Origin: Candidatus Nomurabacteria bacterium
Lineage (GTDB): Bacteria > Patescibacteriota > Patescibacteriia > HK-STAS-PATE-3
Length of the DNA: 64,000 bases
NCBI GenBank assembly: GCA_023898465.1
Contig: CP060223.1
Coordinates: 288,001-352,000 of the forward strand
Reading direction: 5' to 3'
Shown here: positions 2,534 to 38,744 of the stretch, piece by piece
Numbering within the stretch: position 1 is the stretch's first letter
How the letters are laid out: the number at the start of each line of letters is the position of its first letter
Translations under genes and position numbers: made by a program
The notes under the pieces: generated by a model
Seen by the model: only the letters and a program-made list of their open reading frames with translations
Told to the model about the DNA's origin: nothing
Database searches by the model: none

Positions 2534-3237
2534 CACTTGAAGCCCAAATCGAAGCATTACTTTTTGCCAGCGCCCGATCTATCAGCCTGAAAAAAATCAG
2601 CGAGCTTACGCAGCAAGACACTGAGAAGGTGCAAAGCGCGGTAGAGCAGCTTATTGAAAAATATCGCAGCGAAGAGCGAGGGATTCGACTTATTCGTCAG
2701 GCGCAATCCGTCCAAATGGCCACCAGCGCTGAGGCCAGCGACATTGTCACCGCTCTGGTAAAGGATGATCAGCGGGCTGAGCTGACCAAACCGGCCCTGG
2801 AAACACTCACCATCATTGCTTACCGTGGACCGATTACCAAGGCAGAGCTCGACACTATCCGTGGTGTGAACTGCAGTTTGATTCTCCGCAACCTGATGAT
2901 TAAGGGCTTGGTGGAAACAGCGGAACGCGGACAAAAAATAATGACGAGCTATCAAGTGACCAATGATTTTCTGAGCTTCCTTGGATTGGAAAATATTGAT
3001 CAACTGCCTGACTATGCTACCTTGCATAGTGAAGAGCACATGAATAAGCTCCTGGAAAACGACGCAAAAGCCGCTACAGAAGCAGAAAAGACTGCTGAGG
3101 AAGGCGAGGACAAGCCTCAGGAGCAGTCTGAAGAGCCGACTCAAGCTATAGAGGACGAGACAAGCTCCAGTGAACATGCTTCATCAGATGGAAACGATGA
3201 GGCGAGCGAAGGGGAACATGATCAAAACACCAACTGA
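2530..3237 (+). CDS. scpB: segregation and condensation protein B with long acidic C-terminal tail
   Basis: IEALLFAS...ISLKKISELT and TLTIIAYRGPITKAELDTIRGVNCSLILRNLMIKGLVE match ScpB winged-helix repeats. The last ~60 aa are D/E/S rich. Confidence 0.88.
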   Translation: MTLEAQIEALLFASARSISLKKISELTQQDTEKVQSAVEQLIEKYRSEERGIRLIRQAQSVQMATSAEASDIVTALVKDDQRAELTKPALETLTIIAYRGPITKAELDTIRGVNCSLILRNLMIKGLVETAERGQKIMTSYQVTNDFLSFLGLENIDQLPDYATLHSEEHMNKLLENDAKAATEAEKTAEEGEDKPQEQSEEPTQAIEDETSSSEHASSDGNDEASEGEHDQNTN

Positions 3238-4051
3238 ATTTACCAAGCGCAATGAGCCCTTCTTTGTGTTGGGCAATTGGAAAATGCATTTACGCGCCAG
3301 TGAGAGTGCGCGCATAGCCAAGGGTTTGGTGAGCACGGCCAAGCGCGTGCAGGGCAAGGTGACGACGGTGGTCTTCCCTAGCTTTCCCGCATTAGAGAAG
3401 GTCCACACCCAGGTAAAAAAGAGCGCGGTGCAGCTGGGAGCGCAAAATATGTCTTGGGAACTAGATGCCAGTGATACTGGTGAGGTTTCGGCTGAGCAGA
3501 TTAAGGAATTTGGTGCGTCCTGGGTTATTATTGGCCATTCTGAACGGCGCTTAAAACTGGCTGAGTCAGATGAAATGATAGAGCGTAAATTGGCTGCAGC
3601 GCTTTTGCGCGGGTTGCAGCCGGTCTTATGCGTGGGCGAGTCTGCACTTGAGCGTAACCAAGGCAGGGGATTATTGCATATCATGCATCAAGTTGAATCA
3701 GCCATGCGTTACGTGCAGCCGCAAAAAGATCAGGTGATTACCATTGCCTATGAGCCAATCTGGGCTATTTCACCTGGTAAACCCTGCGAGCCGGCTGATG
3801 CTGATGAAATGACGCAAAATATCCGACAAGTTCTCATTGACCGCTACGGGGTAAAACCAGCCTACCAACATTTCCGGATTCTCTATGGCGGGAGCGTCGA
3901 TGCCAACAATATTGCCTCGTATTTACGCTTAGATGAAGTTTCCGGCGTACTTGTCGGCAGCGCCTCGCTGAAAATTCCTTCATTTCGTGCTATGCTAGTG
4001 AAAGCTGCTCAGCTTCGGCAGTCGTTAGTAAAGAAGCGCACTCATTCCTAA
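3218..4051 (+). CDS. tpiA: triosephosphate isomerase
   Basis: GNWKMH, IGHSERR, AYEPIWAI and YGGSV motifs. The start is uncertain: the ORF track opens at 3170, ATG 3218 is chosen here, and GTG 3266 is also possible. Confidence 0.9.
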   Translation: MIKTPTEFTKRNEPFFVLGNWKMHLRASESARIAKGLVSTAKRVQGKVTTVVFPSFPALEKVHTQVKKSAVQLGAQNMSWELDASDTGEVSAEQIKEFGASWVIIGHSERRLKLAESDEMIERKLAAALLRGLQPVLCVGESALERNQGRGLLHIMHQVESAMRYVQPQKDQVITIAYEPIWAISPGKPCEPADADEMTQNIRQVLIDRYGVKPAYQHFRILYGGSVDANNIASYLRLDEVSGVLVGSASLKIPSFRAMLVKAAQLRQSLVKKRTHS

Positions 4052-5312: not shown

Positions 5313-5381
5313 TTTGAGCAGGGCCATAATGAAGGGCTTGGCGAATTGCGTAGTTTTTGTTACCCTACGCTGGTATTTCGG

Positions 5382-5456
5382 GGCCCTATCGTCTAGTGGC
5401 TAGGACGCATGGTTCTCATCCATGTAACAGGGGTTCGATTCCCCTTAGGGCTACCA
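5382..5456 (+). tRNA. tRNA-Glu (anticodon CTC), CCA encoded
   Basis: Hand-folded cloverleaf. Acceptor GGCCCTA/TAGGGCT, D arm GTCT-AGTGGCTA-GGAC, anticodon stem CATGG/CCATG with loop TTCTCAT, T arm AGGGG-TTCGATT-CCCCT, discriminator A, then CCA. 75 nt. Confidence 0.93.
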
Positions 5457-5471
5457 GCCCGCTTAGCGGGC
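5457..5471 (+). terminator. stem-loop directly after tRNA-Glu (GCCCGC-TTA-GCGGGC)
   Basis: Perfect 6-bp GC stem starting at the base after CCA. The trailing U-tract is poor (TCTGCTG). Confidence 0.4.
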
Positions 5472-5539
5472 TCTGCTGATAAGGATAGAAGAAAGTAAAA
5501 GTGGAATGTTTAGCATGTTGTTTTATAAGTTAAGGAATC

Positions 5540-5840
5540 GAACGGGCGAGGACGTCTGCCAGCGGCAGGCGACCGCAAGCCCCGGCCTGAAGTCCCGATA
5601 GGGACGGAATGGTCGATTCCCCTTAGGGCTACCACGGGCCATTGCGCCGTGCGGACTGCGTCCGACCAGGTCGGACTCCGCCCTTACGGCGCATGTCCCT
5701 TTCCCCATTGCAAACAGTCCCTCTCGGCAGCCTCGAGGTCCTTGGTTTGCAACGGGGGCCCCGATAAGAGTGCGGGCCCAAGTGCTCGGCATTACAAAGC
5801 GTCCCAGAAAAAATGCCAGACACAAGTCTTCGGCATTTAA
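5540..5840. other. GC-rich, heavily base-paired non-coding segment (possible ncRNA or relic of foreign DNA)
   Basis: Nested helix 5644-5692: GCGCCGT/ACGGCGC enclosing GCGGA/TCCGC enclosing GTCCGAC/GTCGGAC. Long-range TTGCAAAC/GTTTGCAA pairs 5708-5715 with 5745-5752. Hairpin at 5811-5838. Only overlapping multi-frame ORFs lie here. Confidence 0.3.
5613..5634 (+). repeat. 22-nt exact direct repeat of the tRNA-Glu 3' end (copy of 5435-5456)
   Basis: TCGATTCCCCTTAGGGCTACCA occurs at 5435-5456 (T loop to CCA of the tRNA) and again at 5613-5634. Confidence 0.9.
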
Positions 5841-5927
5841 TGAGAAGAAGACGTAGGTCAACTTCAGAGTGAGTCACCACAAACATCGTCGCTGCGCTAG
5901 AGGCAGCATAATTCAGGAGGAAAAAAT

Positions 5928-6467
5928 ATGTCACGTAGCGTACTCATTTTCATCGTACTCCTCGTTATCCTCGCAGTAGGCGGTGGAATTGTTTGGTGGA
6001 TGGTCACCAACCCAAGCGAAAATAGCAACACAAATAATGCCGTTGTCGCGAATACCAACACTGAGGTGAATGCAAATGCTGCACCGAATATTGATGTACA
6101 GGCCGGTGCGGTGGATGTAGGACGAGAAGCCTTGCTGACCAGTGCGAACTTCCGCGCCAGCTCAGCTTCATTGCTCAGCGAATTTGACGGCCTAAGCGCC
6201 GCTGAAGATAAAAGCTACCTGGTTGTCTATTACATGTTGACGCCTTACGAAGGATCAAGCGAAAACGTGCCAAATCTGAACGATCAAAACGTTTCAGTCA
6301 GCAGCGGTGACACTTCCTATACACTGCAAGCAATTGGCACCACCCAGAGCGAAACTGATGGCGAAGAACTTGGCTATCTGCGTTTCGAAGTGCCTGTTGA
6401 CGCAAGCGGATTTGTCCTAACGATTTTAGACGGCGACATAGAGCAGACGATTGATCTGGGCTTTTAA
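5928..6467 (+). CDS. membrane-anchored hypothetical protein
   Basis: Strong SD (AGGAGG, 7 nt upstream). N-terminal TM helix IFIVLLVILAVGGGIVWWMV followed by an N/T-rich linker. Confidence 0.65.
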   Translation: MSRSVLIFIVLLVILAVGGGIVWWMVTNPSENSNTNNAVVANTNTEVNANAAPNIDVQAGAVDVGREALLTSANFRASSASLLSEFDGLSAAEDKSYLVVYYMLTPYEGSSENVPNLNDQNVSVSSGDTSYTLQAIGTTQSETDGEELGYLRFEVPVDASGFVLTILDGDIEQTIDLGF

Positions 6468-7666: not shown

Positions 7667-10600
7667 ATGGACTCTGCCCCATTAACACTACAAACGAAGA
7701 CACTGCAGAGGTCTTCCGATCTAAATAATTACAGACTCTATCGCGCAGCTCTTGAATGGGAGTTGATTGATCCTATTGTCATAGAAGACCGGGATGACAT
7801 GCATTCCGAAAGTAGTTGGCGTGATCGTCTTGAGCCGTATCATCATCAAGTAACTAACCTAATAACTTTTTGTCGTCGCCTACCTGTTACTTTACTGGCG
7901 GATGATGTCGGGTTAGGAAAAACAATTAGTGCTGGCCTAGTTTTAAGCGAGTTAATTTCGCGCGGGAGAATTTCAAAAATATTAATAGTTTGCCCAAAAA
8001 TACTTCGAGATCAGTGGAAAGAAGAATTGGAAATAAAGTTCCGAATTCCGTCCACAATTGTGACAGGAAGAGAATTAATTACGGCAAAGCCTCCTGAAGA
8101 ACCAGGAGCGGTAATTACCACATACAATACGGCCAGACTGTATTTAGATAGAATTGACCAGAATGGTTTTGAAATATTGATACTTGATGAGGCGCATAAA
8201 TTGCGGAATCTATATGGTGTTGACCCAACACCTCAAGTTGCAATTAAATTCCGTAAAGCTCTGGCTGACCGGATGTTTAAGTACGTATTAATGTTAACTG
8301 CAACGCCGATCCAGAACAGACTATGGGATCTCTACTCGTTGGTTGACTTATTAACCGTTGCACGCGGCCATGAAAATCCCTTTGGAACGCCAGGTATTTT
8401 TGCGAGAAAATTTATTGCAGATAGTCGCACACAAGCGCGTCAGCTTAATCCGGAGATGCGGGATGAGTTTCGCTCAATTATTTACGGTTATATGTCTCGG
8501 GTTCGTCGTGGAGATGCAAAACTCCACTTCCCAGAGCGGGTAGTACAGTTGCATAAAGTTGACCCAACACCAGAAGAATTGCAGTTGATCGGTGTGGTCG
8601 GAAAATCTATACAACAACTGAATGCGCTTACACAAATTGTAATCCTCCAAGCTTTGGTGAGTAGTCCAGAAGCGCTAATAAAGATGTTAGAAGGAATGGC
8701 TAAAAAAGGAACCGTACCGCGTGAGGTGTTGGCGAACGTTAAGGAATCAGCCAAAGAAATTCAAATCACTACAAAACTAAAAGGTTTGGGCGCGTTAGTT
8801 GAAAAACTTAGAAAGGAGCAACCCAATACTTGGCGGGTGGTAGTTTTTACAAGATGGCGAGAAACTCAAACAACTATCGAAACTTTTCTTGAAAAGCAAG
8901 GAGTAAAATGCGGCTTGATAAATGGCGATTCAAGTAAGCGAAATCAGGAAACAATCCAAAGATTTAAAAAAGACTTACCAGACATTAATGTAATTATTTC
9001 TACTGAAGCAGGTTCGGAGGGCGTTAACCTTCAGGCCGCTAATGTTTTGGTTAATTACGATCTCCCCTGGAATCCAATGATAGTGGAACAAAGAATAGGT
9101 CGTATTCAAAGACTTGCTTCTAATTATGCAAATGTTTCTATTTTTAATATTGTTTTGCAAAATACCTTTGAAGAATATATTGTAGGGCGCTTGATGGAAA
9201 AGTTGCAGATGGCTTCTCATGCAATTGGGGATATTGAAGCACTATTGGAAGCATCCGGCATTGATGAAGGTGAAGAAAATGGCTCAAGTGGTTTTGAAGA
9301 AAAAATTCGCCAGTTAGTAGTTGCATCTTTAGCTGGAAAAGATGTTGAGCAGGCAACTCGTAAAGCTGAACAGAGTATTTCAGAAGCTAAAACAGAATTA
9401 GACCATGAAGAAAAGAACATTAATGCTTTACTTGGGGGGATGAGTGATTCTCTAGATTCTGGTCCAAGATGTCCGAAGCTTCCTCAAACTACTAAGTCGA
9501 TGGATGTCCGTGATTTTACTACGGCTGCTCTTATGAGCTTAGGCGCGGAACTACATCCAAAAAAGGATGGTTTATTAGTTTCACAACTTGCTGGGAAAAA
9601 AGAATTAATCCGATTTGATAATAACACTCTGAGCAGTGAAGAGGAGAGTGTCTTATATGCACCGGGAACTTCAACTTTTGAACGCTTAGTCCATAAAGTT
9701 GCAAATGTAGGAAAACACATTGTTGAAGACCTTGATAAAAACCCCCAACAGCAAATTGAGAAAGTAAGTCGTCAATGGGTCGAAAGTTTTGGCGGAGACT
9801 TCGAAAATGTAACGGTAGAGGACGTTTCTCGATGTTTTGCAGGAGTAGCAATAATTCGTGCAAGATCAACAGTAGCTCACGATAGTTATGAGCGTCTCAT
9901 TGAGGTTTCGTGCGCTCCCACTGAGCATTTCAGTTTTGTGACAAGAACGGGATTGGAACCCATCGGAGACTATATTGAAAATCCGACATCTGTTGGTGCG
10001 CTTTCAGAAAAATTAATTGAAAAAGCCAGCCAAGACTCGAGTATTCTTGAGTTCTGTAGATTTTATTTAGAACGAAGATCTCAAGAAATTGCCTCCGCAG
10101 GAAATGACGAAAGAAAAAAGAAAAAGCTTGAGGATGAGTTTACGCCCCGTCTTGAATTTTCCCTAGTCGGTCTTGAGGGCAAGGTTCATCGGATAGTTAA
10201 AAATCAGGTCTCTTATAGAATTGAACGTGAGGGCCAATACAAAAGTACCCTCATGATAACCCCCTCTTCTGGGCAAGTTGATATGCCGGGGATGGGACAA
10301 TGCATGAAAACAGGTAAGACTGTACCGAGCGATTGCTTAGCAAAGTGCGAAATAAGCGGACTTATAGTATTGCGGCATTTTCTTGATCAATCAGAGATCA
10401 GTAATCGACTGGCGCTCCCTGAGCACATCGTTTTATGTACGTTAAGCAACAAGCGAGTGCTAGCGGACGAAGCTATAAAATCAGATGTTACGGGCAAACT
10501 AGTCGCAAAGAAGTTTTTAAAAACATCTTCTCTGAGTGGCAAATTCGCTGAACCACAGTTCATTAACACTTGTGAGTTTACAAAAACAGAAGTTCTGGAA

Positions 10601-11194
10601 AGCGAAATTGCGGTCAGCCAGATTTCAGGAAAAAGATATCGCATTGATGAGCAACTTAAATCCGCAGTTTCAGGAAAACTAGGCCATCGACAAGAATTTG
10701 TAGCAAGTAGTATTTCATCAGCCCCACTTCTTGAAGAAGAAGCCATTCGTTCGGTCACTGGAAAATTTTGTGCACCAATGGAAGCGAGGCCCTGCACTTG
10801 GAGTGGTCGAAAGTGTCACCCCGAAGACCTTAGGACTTGCGAGTTGACCGGAGTCCAAATTCATTCAGAGTACGTAACGCTCGAACCACCAATTCGTTTA
10901 GAAACCCTAAATAATCTTTTGAATGGCACGAGGAGCAAATCTGACAAATTGGAAGTATGGCCTTCACTTTCAAATAGCGTTACAGCTTTATTAAAAGCAA
11001 AACGTTGTAAAATTGAAACAGCAGAAGTTTCACCTAGTGACGATATTTTGGCCGCTTCTATAGAGCTTCGAACTTTTCTAGGCCTGCGCGTGAGTCACAT
11101 TGGCGTACTTTATTCAATAAAGGATGGATCCGTAGTCGGGCGTGTTGCTAGAGGCAAGCGTGGTGATAAGGGCTGGAATCAAACTAAGAACTAA
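7667..11194 (+). CDS. SNF2-family ATPase/helicase with long C-terminal extension containing 13 tandem 15-aa repeats
   Basis: Motif I DDVGLGKT (GLGKT = aa 82-86), motif II DEAH (aa 174-177), motif III TATP, and motif VI QRIGRIQR (aa 475-482). About 690 further residues have no family I recognise. Low GC. Confidence 0.9.
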   Translation: MDSAPLTLQTKTLQRSSDLNNYRLYRAALEWELIDPIVIEDRDDMHSESSWRDRLEPYHHQVTNLITFCRRLPVTLLADDVGLGKTISAGLVLSELISRGRISKILIVCPKILRDQWKEELEIKFRIPSTIVTGRELITAKPPEEPGAVITTYNTARLYLDRIDQNGFEILILDEAHKLRNLYGVDPTPQVAIKFRKALADRMFKYVLMLTATPIQNRLWDLYSLVDLLTVARGHENPFGTPGIFARKFIADSRTQARQLNPEMRDEFRSIIYGYMSRVRRGDAKLHFPERVVQLHKVDPTPEELQLIGVVGKSIQQLNALTQIVILQALVSSPEALIKMLEGMAKKGTVPREVLANVKESAKEIQITTKLKGLGALVEKLRKEQPNTWRVVVFTRWRETQTTIETFLEKQGVKCGLINGDSSKRNQETIQRFKKDLPDINVIISTEAGSEGVNLQAANVLVNYDLPWNPMIVEQRIGRIQRLASNYANVSIFNIVLQNTFEEYIVGRLMEKLQMASHAIGDIEALLEASGIDEGEENGSSGFEEKIRQLVVASLAGKDVEQATRKAEQSISEAKTELDHEEKNINALLGGMSDSLDSGPRCPKLPQTTKSMDVRDFTTAALMSLGAELHPKKDGLLVSQLAGKKELIRFDNNTLSSEEESVLYAPGTSTFERLVHKVANVGKHIVEDLDKNPQQQIEKVSRQWVESFGGDFENVTVEDVSRCFAGVAIIRARSTVAHDSYERLIEVSCAPTEHFSFVTRTGLEPIGDYIENPTSVGALSEKLIEKASQDSSILEFCRFYLERRSQEIASAGNDERKKKKLEDEFTPRLEFSLVGLEGKVHRIVKNQVSYRIEREGQYKSTLMITPSSGQVDMPGMGQCMKTGKTVPSDCLAKCEISGLIVLRHFLDQSEISNRLALPEHIVLCTLSNKRVLADEAIKSDVTGKLVAKKFLKTSSLSGKFAEPQFINTCEFTKTEVLESEIAVSQISGKRYRIDEQLKSAVSGKLGHRQEFVASSISSAPLLEEEAIRSVTGKFCAPMEARPCTWSGRKCHPEDLRTCELTGVQIHSEYVTLEPPIRLETLNNLLNGTRSKSDKLEVWPSLSNSVTALLKAKRCKIETAEVSPSDDILAASIELRTFLGLRVSHIGVLYSIKDGSVVGRVARGKRGDKGWNQTKN
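10301..10882 (+). repeat. intragenic tandem array: 13 units of 15 codons (one unit has 14) inside the SNF2 gene
   Basis: The units, in order: CMKTGKTVPSDCLAK, CEISGLIVLRHFLDQ, SEISNRLALPEHIVL, CTLSNKRVLADEAIK, SDVTGKLVAKKFLKT, SSLSGKFAEPQFINT, CEFTKTEVLESEIAV, SQISGKRYRIDEQLK, SAVSGKLGHRQEFVA, SSISSAPLLEEEAIR, SVTGKFCAPMEARP, CTWSGRKCHPEDLRT, CELTGVQIHSEYVTL. Confidence 0.85.
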
Positions 11195-11195
11195 T

Positions 11196-12686
11196 ATGAA
11201 CCCTCTACTTACAAAAACCGATTATCTTCTTTACCGGGAATGCCCAAAGAATGTTTGGTATAAAATCCAAAAACCTGAATTGTATGCTACATCGGAGCTA
11301 ACAGAGTTTGAAAAATCGATAATGGAAACAGGTAATGAGGTTGAAAAGATTGCAAGGCAACTTTTTCCAAACGGGGTGTTAGTAACTTATCGTGATGCGC
11401 GCGGTCAAGCTGAGACACAAAAGCTATTGGCGGAGAACAAGGATGTGATTTTTCAGCCAGTTTTTGTCAAAAATAACTTTTTGGCTGCTATTGATGTTCT
11501 ACAAAAAGAAAAGAATGGCAAGGGCTACAATGTTTACGAAATAAAATCGACTAGTGATGTAGATAAGAAAACACATTTTCACGACCTAGCATTTCAAGTA
11601 AACGTTCTCAGAATGACAGGCCTGGGAATTAATAAATCATTTGTCATTCATCTAAACTCTGAATATATTCGAAAGGGAGAAATTGAGCTGGATCAGTTAT
11701 TTAAAGTATCAGATGTGACGGATGAAGTAGAAAGTCTTTTACCGGATGTTGCGACTGAGGCGGAAGAAGCATTGAAGTATATTAGCCAAACTTCTGAACC
11801 AGAGGGGTACTGCTGCTGTATTTATAAAGGTCGATCAAGGCATTGTTCAACCTTTCAGCTAGCGAACCCCGAAGTACCCGAATATAGTGTCCACGATATT
11901 TCTAGGATAGGGGTAAGCAAGGCTAAATTAAAAGAGCTAATTGACGGAAGTATTTTTCACCTGGACAAGATTCCGCCACACATTAAATTAAGCGAAATTC
12001 AACAAGGTCAAGTTGAAACCTATAAATTGAATAAGGTATTAGTAGATAAGGAAAGAATTGCGGAAGAATTTAGTGGTCTCACATTCCCACTTTATTTTCT
12101 TGATTATGAAACATTTCCATCAGCAATACCAAGATATGATGGCTTTTCACCATATAAACAAATTCCGTTCCAGTATTCTGTTTACAAACTAGATTCAGTC
12201 GAGAGTGAGCCAACTCATTTTGATTTTTTGTACTCTGGTCCCGAAGACCCCAGCAAGCACTTTGCCGAGTCTTTAAGGGAACATATCGGGGATAAAGGCT
12301 CGATCATCGTTTGGCATAAAGACTTCGAGTGTGGCAGAAATAATGAAATAGGTAGTCGAATTCCTACTTCGAAGGCTTTTTTTGACTCTGTTAATCAGCG
12401 AGTATACGATCTCGAAGACATTTTCAAGAAACAATACCACGTTCATCGAGATTATAAGGGAAGCACATCTATTAAAAACGTATTGCCTGTTTTAGTGCCA
12501 GAATTAACGTATAAAGACCTTGAAATTCGTGATGGTGGCAGTGCAGCGGATAGTTGGGACAAAATAATTAGTGGTGTATATAACGAGACAGAGAAAGAAA
12601 AGGTAATAAAAGATTTAAAGATTTATTGTGGTCTTGATACATTTGCAATGTATGCTATTTGGAATTGCTTGAACAAGCTACTCTAA
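11196..12686 (+). CDS. DUF2779-type protein: Cas4-like PD-(D/E)xK nuclease fused to a DEDDy-like 3'-5' exonuclease domain
   Basis: ATG lies 1 nt after the SNF2 stop. N-terminus TKTDYLLYRECPKNVWYK, then D100...E115-I-K117 (AAIDVL...YEIKS). Cys set C16 plus C206-C207-C208...C217. C-terminal half has FLDYET (D303/E305), WHKDFE (D376) and Y477-CGL-D481. Confidence 0.7.
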   Translation: MNPLLTKTDYLLYRECPKNVWYKIQKPELYATSELTEFEKSIMETGNEVEKIARQLFPNGVLVTYRDARGQAETQKLLAENKDVIFQPVFVKNNFLAAIDVLQKEKNGKGYNVYEIKSTSDVDKKTHFHDLAFQVNVLRMTGLGINKSFVIHLNSEYIRKGEIELDQLFKVSDVTDEVESLLPDVATEAEEALKYISQTSEPEGYCCCIYKGRSRHCSTFQLANPEVPEYSVHDISRIGVSKAKLKELIDGSIFHLDKIPPHIKLSEIQQGQVETYKLNKVLVDKERIAEEFSGLTFPLYFLDYETFPSAIPRYDGFSPYKQIPFQYSVYKLDSVESEPTHFDFLYSGPEDPSKHFAESLREHIGDKGSIIVWHKDFECGRNNEIGSRIPTSKAFFDSVNQRVYDLEDIFKKQYHVHRDYKGSTSIKNVLPVLVPELTYKDLEIRDGGSAADSWDKIISGVYNETEKEKVIKDLKIYCGLDTFAMYAIWNCLNKLL

Positions 12687-12690
12687 ACCT

Positions 12691-13392
12691 ATGAGCTTTC
12701 TTAAGATTTTTAGTGATGATTCTAAAGACAAGCCAAAAGAAAATGATAGTCGGAAACCTGAATGTCCATACTGTCAGGGCGTTTTAGTTAAAATTCCTGC
12801 TAGAAAAACAAAATGTTTTCACTGTGGGAAATATATTTTTGTACGAACACAGACAAAGGACAGAAAGCTCGTTTTGGTTACTGAAGAAAATTCGGCCGCG
12901 ATAGACTCTGAATGGGAGTCAAAACAAGCCGCTACGATCACTTCATTGGTGGAGAAAGTAGATTTTACAAAGAAAAAAGAAGGTCTGCGCGAAGGGTTTG
13001 GGGACAAGGAACCCTCCGTTAGTGACATAAAGTGGGGCTTGTGGAACAAGAGGCTTCAGGAAGCAATGAAACGCAATGATTTTTCAGAACTTTCAGGAAT
13101 ATATTTTCAAATGGCTCTGCGCTTGCACGAAAGTGGAAAAGACAGCTTTAAACTTCAGGGCCAGGCTCAAAAAATGTTTTTGTTTAAAGAAAAGCAAAGC
13201 GGTGTTGTTTCTAGCGTAGAGGTTTTTTCTAGAGATGGCTGTGAAGAATGTAAGAAAATAAACGGAAAGAAATTTGTTATTTTTGAAGCACTAAAACTCA
13301 TGCCACTACCCGTTCAATCCTGCACAAACAAACTGAATAAGAATGCGCCCAATGGTTGGTGTCGATGCACTTTTCTTCCTTTTATAGATTAA
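12691..13392 (+). CDS. zinc-ribbon protein with C-terminal CxxC...C...CxC module
   Basis: Starts 4 nt after the previous stop. N-terminal CPYC-x17-CFHC ribbon, a helical middle, then the C-terminal CEECKKINGKKF...LPVQSC...NGWCRCTFLP. Confidence 0.7.
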   Translation: MSFLKIFSDDSKDKPKENDSRKPECPYCQGVLVKIPARKTKCFHCGKYIFVRTQTKDRKLVLVTEENSAAIDSEWESKQAATITSLVEKVDFTKKKEGLREGFGDKEPSVSDIKWGLWNKRLQEAMKRNDFSELSGIYFQMALRLHESGKDSFKLQGQAQKMFLFKEKQSGVVSSVEVFSRDGCEECKKINGKKFVIFEALKLMPLPVQSCTNKLNKNAPNGWCRCTFLPFID

Positions 13393-35577: not shown

Positions 35578-37158
35578 ATGGCAACGAAAAAAGGGACTAG
35601 CACAAAAACTTCTCGAGAAGCACATCTTTGGCCCGCAGTATTGTTAGTCATTGATGGCTTTGGTCACGCGCCAGCCGGCCCAGGGAATGCTGTTACCCTG
35701 GCCAAGACGCCGAACCTAACAAAAATTATGAAAGAAAATCCCTGGACCCTACTTGACGCATCTGGTCCAGCAGTTGGTTTACCCCCGGGTCAGGCAGGAA
35801 ACTCCGAAGCTGGCCATATGAACATCGGGGCAGGTCGAGTTGTATTGCAAGATAGCGTGCATATCACGAAAGAAATTGAAGATGGCCGCTTCTTTAAAAA
35901 TGCCGCATTCCTAGATGCTATCCACCACTGTCAAAAACGCAACAGCCGTGTGCATTTGATGGGGTTACTTTCTAACGAACAGAGTGGGCATAGTAATCCG
36001 GGTCATTTGCAAGCACTCTTAAAGCTCATGCGGCAAAAAAAAGTGAAAGAAGTCTATTTACATCTTTTCACTGATGGTCGCGATACACCTCCCCGTAGCG
36101 GCCTCGGCATGCTTCATAAGTTAGAAAAAACTTTGCGACCAAATGAGCGGGTTGTCAGCATCGCCGGACGTCTATGGGCAATGGATCGTAAGAAAAATTG
36201 GCAGCGAACAGATGCCTCATATCATATGCTTATTGAGGGACAAGGTCATCAAGTAAAATCCGCCTCAGAAGCCATCAGTCAAGGCTATGCGCATGGTACG
36301 ACTGATGAATTTATCGAACCCTCTGTCATATTTGAGAAAGATAAGCCGGTCGGTCGAATCGAGGACGGTGATGCAGTCATTTACTTTAATTTACGTTCTG
36401 ATCGCGCCCGGCAGCTTACCAAGCCTTTTGTGCAGGATAACTTCAAAGAATTCCGTCGCCGCAAAGTCATGCACGACTTAGCCTTTGTGGCTATGACCGA
36501 CTTTGGCCCAGACTTGAATCATTTATTGACTGCGTATCCAAGCGTTGATATTCAGGGCACTTTGCCGATGGCCCTAAAAGGGAAGCGGCAAATGTATATT
36601 GCAGAGAATGAAAAATTCGCCCATGTAACGTATTTCTTAAACGGTGGCTATGCTAACCCGGTGGCAAATGAAGATCGCATTATGATTCCTTCACCTGCGG
36701 TTGCCCATTATGATGAGGTGCCTGGGATGTCCACCCCGGGGATTACCTTGCGTACACTTTCCGTTTTGCAAAAAAAGCAGTACGACTTTATTGGCATGAA
36801 CTTTGCCAATTGCGATATGGTAGGGCATACCGGAAATCTCAAAGCCGCCATCACTGCTGTCGAAACCGTTGATGAGGCGATTGGAACTTTATACAAAGAA
36901 ATCCAAAAGCAGGATGGGTTACTTTTTATAACTGCCGATCATGGCAATGTAGAAAGTATGCTCTTCCCAGAAACCGGTGAGGCCGATACTGAACATTCGC
37001 AAAACCCGGTTCCATTCATTATCGCTGGCAAAGTTCCGAAGCAGTTTAACATTTTGAAAAAAGATGGCGTGTTGGGTCAGGTAGCTCCGACCGTGCTTGA
37101 TACTTTGGGGATCCCCATACCGACAGAAATGAAACTCAGTTCACTATGGCAAAAGTAA
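35578..37158 (+). CDS. gpmI: 2,3-bisphosphoglycerate-independent phosphoglycerate mutase, copy 1
   Basis: VIDGFG, GNSEAGHMNIGAGR, TDGRDTPP, MVGHTG, TADHGN. Confidence 0.9.
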   Translation: MATKKGTSTKTSREAHLWPAVLLVIDGFGHAPAGPGNAVTLAKTPNLTKIMKENPWTLLDASGPAVGLPPGQAGNSEAGHMNIGAGRVVLQDSVHITKEIEDGRFFKNAAFLDAIHHCQKRNSRVHLMGLLSNEQSGHSNPGHLQALLKLMRQKKVKEVYLHLFTDGRDTPPRSGLGMLHKLEKTLRPNERVVSIAGRLWAMDRKKNWQRTDASYHMLIEGQGHQVKSASEAISQGYAHGTTDEFIEPSVIFEKDKPVGRIEDGDAVIYFNLRSDRARQLTKPFVQDNFKEFRRRKVMHDLAFVAMTDFGPDLNHLLTAYPSVDIQGTLPMALKGKRQMYIAENEKFAHVTYFLNGGYANPVANEDRIMIPSPAVAHYDEVPGMSTPGITLRTLSVLQKKQYDFIGMNFANCDMVGHTGNLKAAITAVETVDEAIGTLYKEIQKQDGLLFITADHGNVESMLFPETGEADTEHSQNPVPFIIAGKVPKQFNILKKDGVLGQVAPTVLDTLGIPIPTEMKLSSLWQK

Positions 37159-38744
37159 GCTCCTCAGTTTATCGACCCGTCGTGCTTGTTGTCTACGATG
37201 GTTTTGGTGTCGCACCAGCTTCTCGCGGCAATGCCATTAGCTTAGCCAAGACACCACACTTTGACGATATACTCCGGCATTACCCGGCAATTACCCTACA
37301 AGCTTCTGGCGAGGCGGTTGGTTCGCTCTGGGGGGAGTTGGGGAATTCAGAAGTCGGACACATGAATATGGGCGCCGGCCGCATCGTTTATCAGGATTTG
37401 CCGAGAATCACCAAGGCAGTTGCCGACGGCAGTATCATGAAAAATCCAGCCTTGCTTGATGCGGTAAAGCACGTGAAGGAGAAGGGGAGCAGTCTCCATA
37501 TTATGGGATTGATGAGCTCAGGAGGTGTGCATAGTTTTAATGAGCACGCCTATGCTTTACTCGAATTTGCCAAGCATGAAAAAATCGACAAAGTATTTAT
37601 TCATGCCTTCTTAGACGGTCGCGATACGCCGCATAATAGCGCAGAGCGTTTTATTACCAAACTTCAAGCGACAATACAGAGTTTAGGCGTAGGGAAGATT
37701 GCCTCACTCTCTGGACGCTACTGGGCCATGGATCGAGATAATCGTTGGGATAGGATTGAAAAAGCGTATCGCGTATTAGTTGACGGCAATGCAGAACAAA
37801 GCGCAACTGATCCGATGCAAGCAATTCACGACAGCTATGCAAAGAAAGTATACGATGAGGAATTTATACCTACAGTTATCACTGATGCGGCCGGCGCCCC
37901 GATTGGGAAGATAAACAATAACGACGCAGTCATTTTCTTTAATTTCCGACCAGATCGCGCTCGCCAGTTAACCAAGGCATTTGTGCTGCCAGGTTTTGAA
38001 AAGTTTTCTCGTGTCTACATGCCAGATCTCTTTTTTGTGACAATGACTGAGTACGAAAAGGATTTGCCGGTGAGTATTGCCTTCCCACCTGAGCATGTGG
38101 CAGAGCCTCTAGCAAAAGTCCTCTCTGACGCCGGCAAGACACAACTCCATATTGCCGAGACGGAAAAGTATGCCCATGTCACTTTCTTCTTTAACGGAGG
38201 CCGAGAAAAAGCCTATCCGCAAGAGGACCGCATACTTATTCCTTCACCGGCAGTGAATTCCTATGATCAGAAGCCGGACATGAGCGCTCGTGAAATAACC
38301 GATCGCGTGATTGAAGAAATTCAGAGCATGAAGTATGACTTGATTGTTATTAATTACGCAAACGCAGATATGGTGGGTCACACCGGCAAATTGCCAGCGA
38401 CGATTGAGGCAATTGAAATGTTGGATGAGATGACAGCCCGGCTCAAAGAAATTGTCGAGGAGGTAAACGGTGTGTTGCTACTAACTGCTGATCACGGCAA
38501 TGCTGAGGATATGATTAATTTACAAACCGGCTTTTTACAAAAAGAGCACACGACAAATCCTGTCCCATGTATTTTGGTAGGAAAGGCTTTTCGTTCAACG
38601 AAAGATAAAGACACCATGTCGCTCGATCTTTCTTTGCAGACGCCACGAGGATTACTTTCTGATGTTGCACCAACTATTCTCGAGCTGATGGGAGTTGCCA
38701 AACCAAAATCCATGACTGGAAAGAGTTTGCTCCATGTGTTTTAG
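37146..38744 (+). CDS. gpmI: 2,3-bisphosphoglycerate-independent phosphoglycerate mutase, copy 2
   Basis: VYDGFG, GNSEVGHMNMGAGR, LDGRDTPH, MVGHTG, TADHGN. Overlaps copy 1 by 13 nt. Confidence 0.9.
   Translation: MAKVSSSVYRPVVLVVYDGFGVAPASRGNAISLAKTPHFDDILRHYPAITLQASGEAVGSLWGELGNSEVGHMNMGAGRIVYQDLPRITKAVADGSIMKNPALLDAVKHVKEKGSSLHIMGLMSSGGVHSFNEHAYALLEFAKHEKIDKVFIHAFLDGRDTPHNSAERFITKLQATIQSLGVGKIASLSGRYWAMDRDNRWDRIEKAYRVLVDGNAEQSATDPMQAIHDSYAKKVYDEEFIPTVITDAAGAPIGKINNNDAVIFFNFRPDRARQLTKAFVLPGFEKFSRVYMPDLFFVTMTEYEKDLPVSIAFPPEHVAEPLAKVLSDAGKTQLHIAETEKYAHVTFFFNGGREKAYPQEDRILIPSPAVNSYDQKPDMSAREITDRVIEEIQSMKYDLIVINYANADMVGHTGKLPATIEAIEMLDEMTARLKEIVEEVNGVLLLTADHGNAEDMINLQTGFLQKEHTTNPVPCILVGKAFRSTKDKDTMSLDLSLQTPRGLLSDVAPTILELMGVAKPKSMTGKSLLHVF

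Follow-up and report, generated by a model that had tools for sequence, protein, structure and literature searches.

The sequence analysed here, referred to as the window, is a 64,000-nucleotide stretch of contig CP060223.1 of Candidatus Nomurabacteria bacterium (positions 288,001 to 352,000). It contains a tRNA-Glu gene with anticodon CTC, preceded by genes for GAPDH and a small membrane ORF and followed by genes for a TM protein and a GT4 glycosyltransferase. The last 22 nt of the tRNA gene, TCGATTCCCCTTAGGGCTACCA, running from T55 in the T-loop to the encoded CCA, occur exactly twice in the window, both times on the forward strand. The two copies and the features around them are listed in Table 1.

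Table 1. Features of the tRNA-Glu locus, with coordinates of the window.
Feature	Coordinates	Strand	Basis
tRNA-Glu, anticodon CTC, CCA encoded; target gene	5382..5456	+	ARAGORN; Rfam tRNA, 62.5 bits
Repeat copy 1, T-loop T55 through CCA; attL-like core	5435..5456	+	Exact 22-mer
GC hairpin GCCCGC-TTA-GCGGGC	5457..5471	+	Sequence; fold; 80% GC
AT-rich spacer, 29% GC, 62 nt	5472..5533	+	
5' arm GGAATCGAAC	5534..5543	+	Inverted repeat; folds
Inner GC-rich helices of the unit	5544..5612	+	MFE and centroid folds; 68% GC
Repeat copy 2; attR-like core	5613..5634	+	Exact 22-mer; fold
GC-rich block (64.5%) with two long hairpins, 5643-5693 and 5703-5757	5635..5800	.	

Structure of the locus and of its close relatives

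A preceding interpretation made from the letters alone (the sequence-only reading) had reported a 22-nt duplication of the tRNA-Glu 3' end, and this duplication is exact. No third copy was present in the window at up to three mismatches; the expected number was 0.01, and none of 100 shuffles reached two matches. Furthermore, an independent Logan assembly (L081, SRR12358676) has a sequence identical to that of the window. The tRNA-Glu(CTC) gene is kept intact despite the repeat. Integrases that target tRNA genes restore the tRNA 3' end, and the displaced copy becomes a direct repeat at the far end of the element.

The spacer between the copies measures 156 nt (5457-5612). Its first feature, a GC hairpin, adjoins the tRNA 3' end and occupies the same place as the terminator hairpin of units at other loci; a T-run is absent from it and the terminator scan did not call it. 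This hairpin and the AT-rich stretch behind it had both been recognized in the sequence-only reading, from which the final 79 nt of the spacer (5534-5612; 68% GC, folded) were absent, as was the observation that the 5' arm GGAATCGAAC is the reverse complement of the tRNA T-loop GTTCGATTCC. In the predicted fold, helix P1 is formed between this arm and the initial 6-8 nt of repeat copy 2, and the remainder of copy 2 is left as an unpaired tail consisting of the acceptor 3' strand and ACCA. Two inner helices are found in both the MFE and the centroid folds, one with GGGC/GCCC around the hairpin CGUCUGCC-AGC-GGCAGGCG and the other being the hairpin GUCCC-GAUA-GGGAC. Repeat copy 2 is the 3' end of a unit of approximately 100 nt, 5534-5634.

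The 156 nt between the exact cores hold no credible coding ORF and no integration or transfer genes. The sole ORF of at least 110 aa that overlaps the insert (5526-5861, minus strand) had no Pfam match, and the first ORF downstream of tRNA-Glu begins at 5928. No recombinase, transposase or GIY-YIG domain was detected by Pfam in window ORFs of at least 110 aa, in line with the earlier statement that the window lacks an integrase. The GC-rich block 3' of copy 2 (166 nt) had gone unmentioned, and it is absent from the two closest syntenic relatives, L082 and L088. It has no similarity to the unit, to tRNA or to any fetched locus. The block was also considered as RNase P RNA or as a group I intron, and both readings were rejected, ARAGORN and Rfam being empty at E values up to 10. 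A decayed third tRNA end sought in 5635-5927 scored within the shuffle range, and copies of 5457-5927 were found neither elsewhere in the window nor in any fetched locus. A boundary set by the two repeats leaves this hairpin-bearing DNA, which extends for 166 nt past copy 2, unaccounted for.

L082 and L088 (GAPDH 73% identical) share with the window the order GAPDH, small membrane ORF, tRNA-Glu(CTC), TM protein and GT4 glycosyltransferase. Each has a single tRNA 3' end, with 63 or 95 nt to the next gene versus 472 nt in the window, where the extra DNA (approximately 380-410 nt) is made up of the 156-nt spacer, copy 2 and the GC-rich block. Because both relatives have one copy and a short spacer, the insertion is placed in the window; by this comparison of sequence and gene order, the window locus is one that holds an insertion relative to its closest syntenic relatives. 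The sequence-only reading had proposed a search for such empty sites, and two were thereby obtained; it had also pointed out that two copies in all relatives would speak for a functional RNA, and L082 and L088 carry one. Four further GAPDH relatives were fetched; the tRNA is missing here from two of them and stands bare in a third, and the fourth (L168) carries a variant with a GIY-YIG gene. The insertion in the window is probably fairly recent, because both copies of the 22-mer are still identical. An excised, single-copy allele would join ...GGGCTACCA directly to CGGGCCATTG, while a circular form would read ...GGAATGG-TCGATTCCCCTTAGGGCTACCA-GCCCGCTTAGC.

Folded units beside tRNA-Glu in other lineages

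Within the CPR, a similar arrangement was found in L002 (Kerfeldbacteria, GAPDH 63%), where GAPDH, a small ORF and tRNA-Glu(CTC) stand in the window's order. The L002 22-mer, TCGAATCCCCATGGCGGTACCA, recurs 140 nt downstream with boundaries identical to those of the window's repeat. Upstream of its second copy lies an arm, GGATTCGA, that compensates for an A/T swap in the L002 T-loop, with GC hairpins between arm and copy 2. A 65-aa resolvase N-terminal fragment is encoded downstream, and upstream a GIY-YIG ORF abuts tRNA-Glu; the tRNA fragment sought upstream of the GIY-YIG gene was not significant. The window and L002 are the two members of the CPR subfamily. In L168, also of the Kerfeldbacteria, an intact tRNA-Glu is followed by a GIY-YIG ORF, 40% identical to that of L002, and then by a second tRNA-Glu-like copy. 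The anticodon arm (33 nt) and the segment from C56 to CCA (21 nt) of this second copy are exact, its T-loop is interrupted by a 32-nt hairpin and a long hairpin takes the place of the D arm; the copy folds into a cloverleaf whose D and T loops carry the inserted hairpins.

Metagenomes were scanned with a pattern of the unit in which the variable T-loop base, its arm partner and seven tail bases were left free. The scan returned nine matches, seven of which are real loci (L092-L097 and L099); L091 and L098 were rejected as units and look like chance or plain tRNA. Subfamily A (L092-L095) is assigned to Clostridia by assembly GCA_017447585.1 and by the name that NCBI gives to the linked protein P0122, and subfamily B (L096, L097 and L099) comes from low-GC metagenome contigs. 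Units of approximately 100 nt follow a tRNA-Glu and its terminator at four of the seven loci, with anticodon CTC in L092, L093 and L097 and TTC in L099, and units are present with no intact tRNA gene in L094, L095 and L096. In every unit of the seven loci the arm is Watson-Crick complementary (once G.U) to the unit's own T-loop copy, whether this carries the C, T or A variant. At all three loci with a neighbouring tRNA-Glu(CTC), namely L092, L093 and L097, the free tail bases are those of the adjacent tRNA; the tails in L099 and L083/L084 derive from tRNA-Glu alleles other than the adjacent gene.

Most full units of both subfamilies are followed by a hairpin and T-run, often unlike the tRNA's own. 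Several loci carry tandem arrays, with 3.3 copies at a period of 136 nt at the end of L094, and every array ends in an outermost unit that has been truncated or mutated. A spurious ORF running across an array, translated and used to look for further arrays among known proteins, retrieved nothing but itself. The distribution of units is patchy across lineages, units are absent from the closest relatives, and no neighbouring gene is conserved except the tRNA.

All ten units examined are predicted to fold as a three-way junction comprising P1, a long hairpin with an internal loop, a second hairpin and an unpaired 3' tail, with P1 formed by the 5' arm and the first 6-10 nt of the tRNA-derived 22-mer. 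The window unit folds modestly better than shuffled sequences (z = -2.06; 7 of 200 shuffles as good), and its forward strand folds 7.5 kcal/mol better than the reverse. The forward strand was favoured in six of the ten units, by 5-11 kcal/mol in the window, L002 and all subfamily B units. In subfamily A (seven sequences) 10 of 29 pairs changed on both sides and 95.9% of cells were paired, while the corresponding values for subfamily B (three sequences) were 11 of 30 and 94.4%. Covariation scores were 0.31 for A and 0.49 for B, versus at most 0.09 and 0.11 in slid registers, and none of 500 shuffles reached either score, the structures tested coming from those same small alignments. This covariation covers the inner helices of A and B, the window's own CPR subfamily having two members. 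Subfamily B has two invariant G.U pairs and subfamily A has the conserved internal-loop bases AGUGAAU / GAG, at the position of which L002 has GAGUGA.

A covariance model of subfamily A gave no match to the window, L002 or subfamily B units under default filters. With filters off, the model matched the window at 5527-5634 with 18.5 bits, versus 7.9 for the tRNA's own 3' end; these matches to the window, L002 and B units were made solely through P1 and the tail, not the inner helices. It is by architecture and position that the window unit is linked to the Clostridial and low-GC units. No promoter-like site was found upstream of the units in L097, L092 and the window.

Genes are associated with the unit in L095 and L155-L161 (seven contigs, Clostridia bacterium). 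Here tRNA-Glu and its terminator are followed by the unit, the 22-mer and a different terminator, then by a truncated tyrosine recombinase, three small ORFs and an LRR protein, and finally by a poorly conserved unit-like stretch and a Na/Pi cotransporter gene. The recombinase (115 aa, PF00589) has its C-terminus toward the core and contains the RHT...Y motif. Taken alone, the distal decayed unit in L156 shows marginal similarity, with a score of 30 that equals the shuffle maximum. L092 occupies the same chromosomal site as L156, with the same transporter and promoter; there a 36-nt hairpin is all that separates the second 22-mer from the decayed distal unit, with neither integrase nor cargo. 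Since L156 bears genes at the point where L092 has 36 nt, one and the same period [22-mer, terminator ... folded unit, 22-mer] may be gene-bearing or empty. The two loci resemble an integrated element and its gene-less derivative, and the change could have run in either direction. A pair of this type was found for Clostridia and none for the CPR lineage. No intact recombinase was seen next to any unit, truncated integrases having turned up only in L095 and L155-L161, and the window, like every locus with an examined gene content, showed no IntI-like gene.

Searches of sequence collections yielded no free form of the unit. Rfam 15 recognized nothing but tRNA in the window region, L092-L099, L002, L166 and L168. 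The insert and the Clostridial and low-GC units had no real match among INPHARED phages and PLSDB plasmids, so that the comparison with phage and plasmid databases proposed in the sequence-only reading came back negative. Four unit patterns found nothing in IMG/VR. The 55 IMG/VR matches to a 17-mer were all chance coding matches, and the sole match of the exact 22-mer there was the tRNA-Glu gene of a jumbo phage, not an attP. As no unit is present in IMG/VR, INPHARED or PLSDB, no free attP form is known.

Interpretation of the insert

On balance, we lean toward reading 5457-5612 as a miniature, integrase-less integrative element of CIME-like type, the folded end of which is probably a cis-acting site. 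Site-specific insertion into the segment of tRNA-Glu(CTC) from the T-loop to CCA would have left the two 22-mer cores, flanking an element built of a hairpin in terminator position, a short spacer and a folded module of approximately 80 nt. The arm of this module is an inverted copy of the T-loop and T-stem; since it has the bottom-strand sequence of the T arm over 10-14 nt, its pairing with the displaced tRNA end upon folding of the top strand would rebuild a duplex target core. Such a module may be kept in stripped-down elements as a cis-acting site, in its likeliest form a strand-specifically folded recombination site or another site acting as a single strand, and could be used in trans by a recombinase encoded elsewhere. 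A bolder proposal, which we put forward tentatively and regard as rather doubtful, is that the units constitute a new class of tRNA-Glu-targeting, strand-specifically folded element, with either a site like those of CTX-phi and attC or an ncRNA in which the att core serves as a guide-like 3' tail. If a folded recombination site is indeed involved, enzyme-less mini-elements of 130-180 bp could insert repeatedly beside tRNA-Glu, from Patescibacteria to Clostridia.

The sequence-only reading had taken the repeats for the attL and attR of an element that had been almost completely deleted, or for a hotspot still open to use. Its att component, with the tRNA as a reusable target, is borne out by the empty sites, by the repeats at tRNA-Glu(CTC) in unrelated lineages, by the Clostridial integrase period and by the outward decay of the arrays. 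The view of the insert as a deletion leftover fares less well, since copy 2 ends a longer conserved folded unit whose arm tracks the T-loop variant of the host. The inner helices covary in A and B, and a longer conserved structure that includes copy 2 is what that reading had itself named as evidence against a scar. The truth is between a scar and a functional structured element.

The position of the unit beside the tRNA could also be explained by a small RNA gene family, produced by read-through from the tRNA promoter and folding as a three-way junction with a single-stranded tail of tRNA-Glu acceptor strand and ACCA, an explanation we consider unlikely. Such a family would have spread by tandem duplication and might, for instance, act as a tRNA-end mimic or decoy, alter the way pre-tRNA-Glu folds by means of its anti-T-loop arm or serve as a guide-like RNA, with integrases landing beside the unit merely for its spare target copy. 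It would accommodate the strong compensatory covariation and the conserved internal-loop bases, neither of which is normal for double-stranded att arms, together with the invariant G.U pairs, the folding advantage of the forward strand and the hairpins and T-runs, often distinct from the tRNA's own, behind most full A and B units. The arm also keeps 'AAC', complementing the real tRNA T-loop beyond the need of P1, and the cloverleaf fold of the second L168 copy is of the same tenor. Covariation with conserved loop bases suits an RNA as well as it suits single-stranded DNA. Several observations speak against an RNA family, namely decay of the outer array copies, tails unlike the adjacent tRNA in L099 and L083, and the want of an Rfam match or of any conserved neighbour but the tRNA. 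The lack of a promoter-like site before the units, combined with their patchy distribution and absence from the closest relatives, is better suited to a role at the DNA level or by read-through than to an autonomous RNA gene.

A homing-type nuclease, in which a GIY-YIG cassette cuts tRNA-Glu loci in the CPR and is copied in by repair, the window copy having lost the nuclease gene, is improbable. The GIY-YIG ORF is the sole gene between the intact tRNA-Glu of L168 and the copy with the interrupted T-loop, and a 40%-identical GIY-YIG ORF abuts the tRNA-Glu of L002; yet these are two loci only, the window has none, Clostridial arrays have an integrase remnant instead, and the intact first tRNA copy would stay cleavable. 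Small GIY-YIG proteins of such size are common stand-alone genes and are not known as mobile. There is a similarly slim chance that the insert is a plain decaying scar or tRNA pseudogene, left by a single old integration or tandem duplication followed by neutral drift, with an accidental GC-rich fold. The modest z score of the window fold, the lack of an enzyme gene and the size of the CPR subfamily are compatible with that; against it, the build of arm, helices and tail has recurred independently, each lineage showing its own sequence and compensating changes in the arm, covariation in A and B exceeds 500 of 500 shuffles, and identity at 22 of 22 positions argues against long neutral decay. 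It is scarcely credible that a two-piece (permuted) tmRNA, or some other tRNA-like RNA, has its acceptor end in copy 2, despite the CCA end amid a GC-rich structured block and the resemblance of GGAATCGAACGGG to the tmRNA 5' motif, GGAUUCGACGGG. Acceptor position 70 is G, so the G3.U70 alanine identity is missing, no T stem is possible 5' of copy 2, a 5' acceptor strand is missing downstream, and a tag-like frame is absent. A tmRNA, standard or two-piece, was rejected by ARAGORN and by Rfam at E values up to 10.

Comparison with known systems

Duplicated tRNA ends are a textbook sign of integrated elements, and after gene loss they are usually written off as scars. Under the favoured reading of a miniature integrative element, a gene-less remnant would keep a specific folded module with compensatory evolution, in a build shared by tRNA-Glu loci of CPR, Clostridia and other uncultured lineages. 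If the module is cis-acting, it would imply very small non-autonomous elements living as parasites of tRNA-targeting recombinases, and it may indicate a folded-strand recombination mechanism at tRNA genes; such recombination is known solely for integron cassettes and Xer-dependent phages. If the module is an RNA, it would represent an unannotated family with a tRNA 3' end. Either way, the locus would mark an active hotspot for insertions in genomes of the CPR, a group regarded as poor in mobile elements, and would provide a searchable sequence signature.

Tyrosine integrases that target tRNA genes duplicate the tRNA 3' end as attL and attR, and a T-loop sublocation class has been catalogued for phage and island integrases. 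The units described here resemble these systems in the extent of the repeat from the T-loop to the tRNA 3' end, the intact tRNA, the empty sites in relatives and, at Clostridial loci, an integrase remnant oriented toward the core. They differ in that the repeats of the window lie 156 nt apart with no enzyme, in that the distal core adjoins a folded, covarying module with an inverted T-loop arm rather than arm-type protein sites, and in that no free attP is present in phage and plasmid collections. The forked hairpin of CTX-phi attP(+) and the integron attC are folded single-strand recombination sites. As in these, inverted core copies 70-80 nt apart would pair within one strand and rebuild the target duplex, structure is conserved over sequence, and tandem arrays form at the target. 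Unlike these, the units have no dif-like XerCD sites, RYYYAAC/GTTRRRY boxes or IntI; their arm reads GTCGAAC or ATCGAAC, their target is the T arm of a tRNA, and their use as a single strand is putative.

[quoted passage not shown] The units are likewise att-flanked, devoid of integration and transfer genes and in tandem with decayed elements at the 3' end of a target gene, but they measure 130-180 bp and recur across phyla, whereas CIMEs are kilobase-scale deletion derivatives (PMC5704250). The retention of one specific folded module suggests selection for a cis-acting site over random deletion. The window element is accordingly labelled CIME-like, its mobilization being putative. The available part of an account of Dehalococcoides describes tandem genomic islands at the ssrA (tmRNA) gene (PMC3146451), which are similar in their site-specific insertion at a small stable-RNA gene of an uncultured-type lineage; the islands in that part are large and gene-bearing, with no folded mini-module reported. 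Duplications of tRNA ends, CIMEs and accretion are already known. Rfam 15 and the literature searched yielded no conserved, covarying and strand-specific module that has an inverted T-loop arm and recurs beside tRNA-Glu in distant phyla as 130-180-bp units and arrays.

GC-rich block beside the second repeat copy

The GC-rich block that follows copy 2 of the tRNA-Glu 3'-end repeat in the window, with its two long hairpins, is missing in L082 and L088, the closest syntenic relatives. Comparison of this block with the unit (the ~100-nt folded module that ends in repeat copy 2), the tRNA and all fetched loci revealed no similarity. A second decayed element may lie here, of which the block would be the left end.

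Coordinates of the features discussed, by locus
Feature	Locus	Position	Description
GC-rich block	Window	5635-5800	166 nt, 64.5% GC; directly 3' of repeat copy 2
Long hairpin of block	Window	5643-5693	
Long hairpin of block	Window	5703-5757	
GIY-YIG locus	L168 (Kerfeldbacteria GCA_016207345.1)	2807-3312	Intact tRNA-Glu(CTC), GIY-YIG ORF, second tRNA-Glu-like copy
GC-rich non-coding stretch	L002 (Kerfeldbacteria)	5313-5727	~400 nt, from small membrane ORF to GIY-YIG ORF
Two GC hairpins, then ACCGGTGGGGCTACCA	L083/L084	5994-6060	44 nt past tRNA-Glu(CTC)
tRNA-Glu(CTC)	L090	4611-4684	On 332 kb IMG/VR contig, jumbo-phage-size
SNF2 helicase	Window	Within 7667-13389	1175 aa; best PADLOC matches BrxH/DrmD
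DUF2779 protein	Window	Within 7667-13389	514 aa; weak Cas4-like match
Third ORF	Window	Within 7667-13389	233 aa

tRNA-Glu copies and ends at other loci

In the second tRNA-Glu-like copy of L168 the anticodon arm and the 3' end are both exact. Its D arm is replaced by a hairpin and a 32-nt hairpin is inserted in its T-loop; a cloverleaf-like fold is predicted for this copy. In L002 the GIY-YIG ORF, 40% identical to that of L168, adjoins tRNA-Glu. The non-coding stretch of L002 had no match in Rfam and yielded no significant tRNA fragments.

At L083/L084, where the tRNA-Glu(CTC) has an acceptor stem of the GCCGCC type, ACCGGTGGGGCTACCA is the 3'-terminal sequence of another tRNA-Glu allele, one of the GGCCC type. 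The T-loop variant TTCTATT is present in L084.

The viral tRNA-Glu(CTC) of L090 shares its last 22 nt with that of the window. This match was rejected as an attP, the att form of a free element, since the whole tRNA gene is present.

Gene content of the window

Cofactor-independent phosphoglycerate mutase is encoded twice in the window (35578-38741), by adjacent, slightly overlapping genes that both carry iPGM_N and Metalloenzyme domains.

Three ORFs lie between GT4, the glycosyltransferase gene downstream of the tRNA, and hrcA. In the relative L088, hrcA-grpE directly follows GT4. The interval looks like a ~6-kb defence-like insertion near the tRNA-Glu hotspot.
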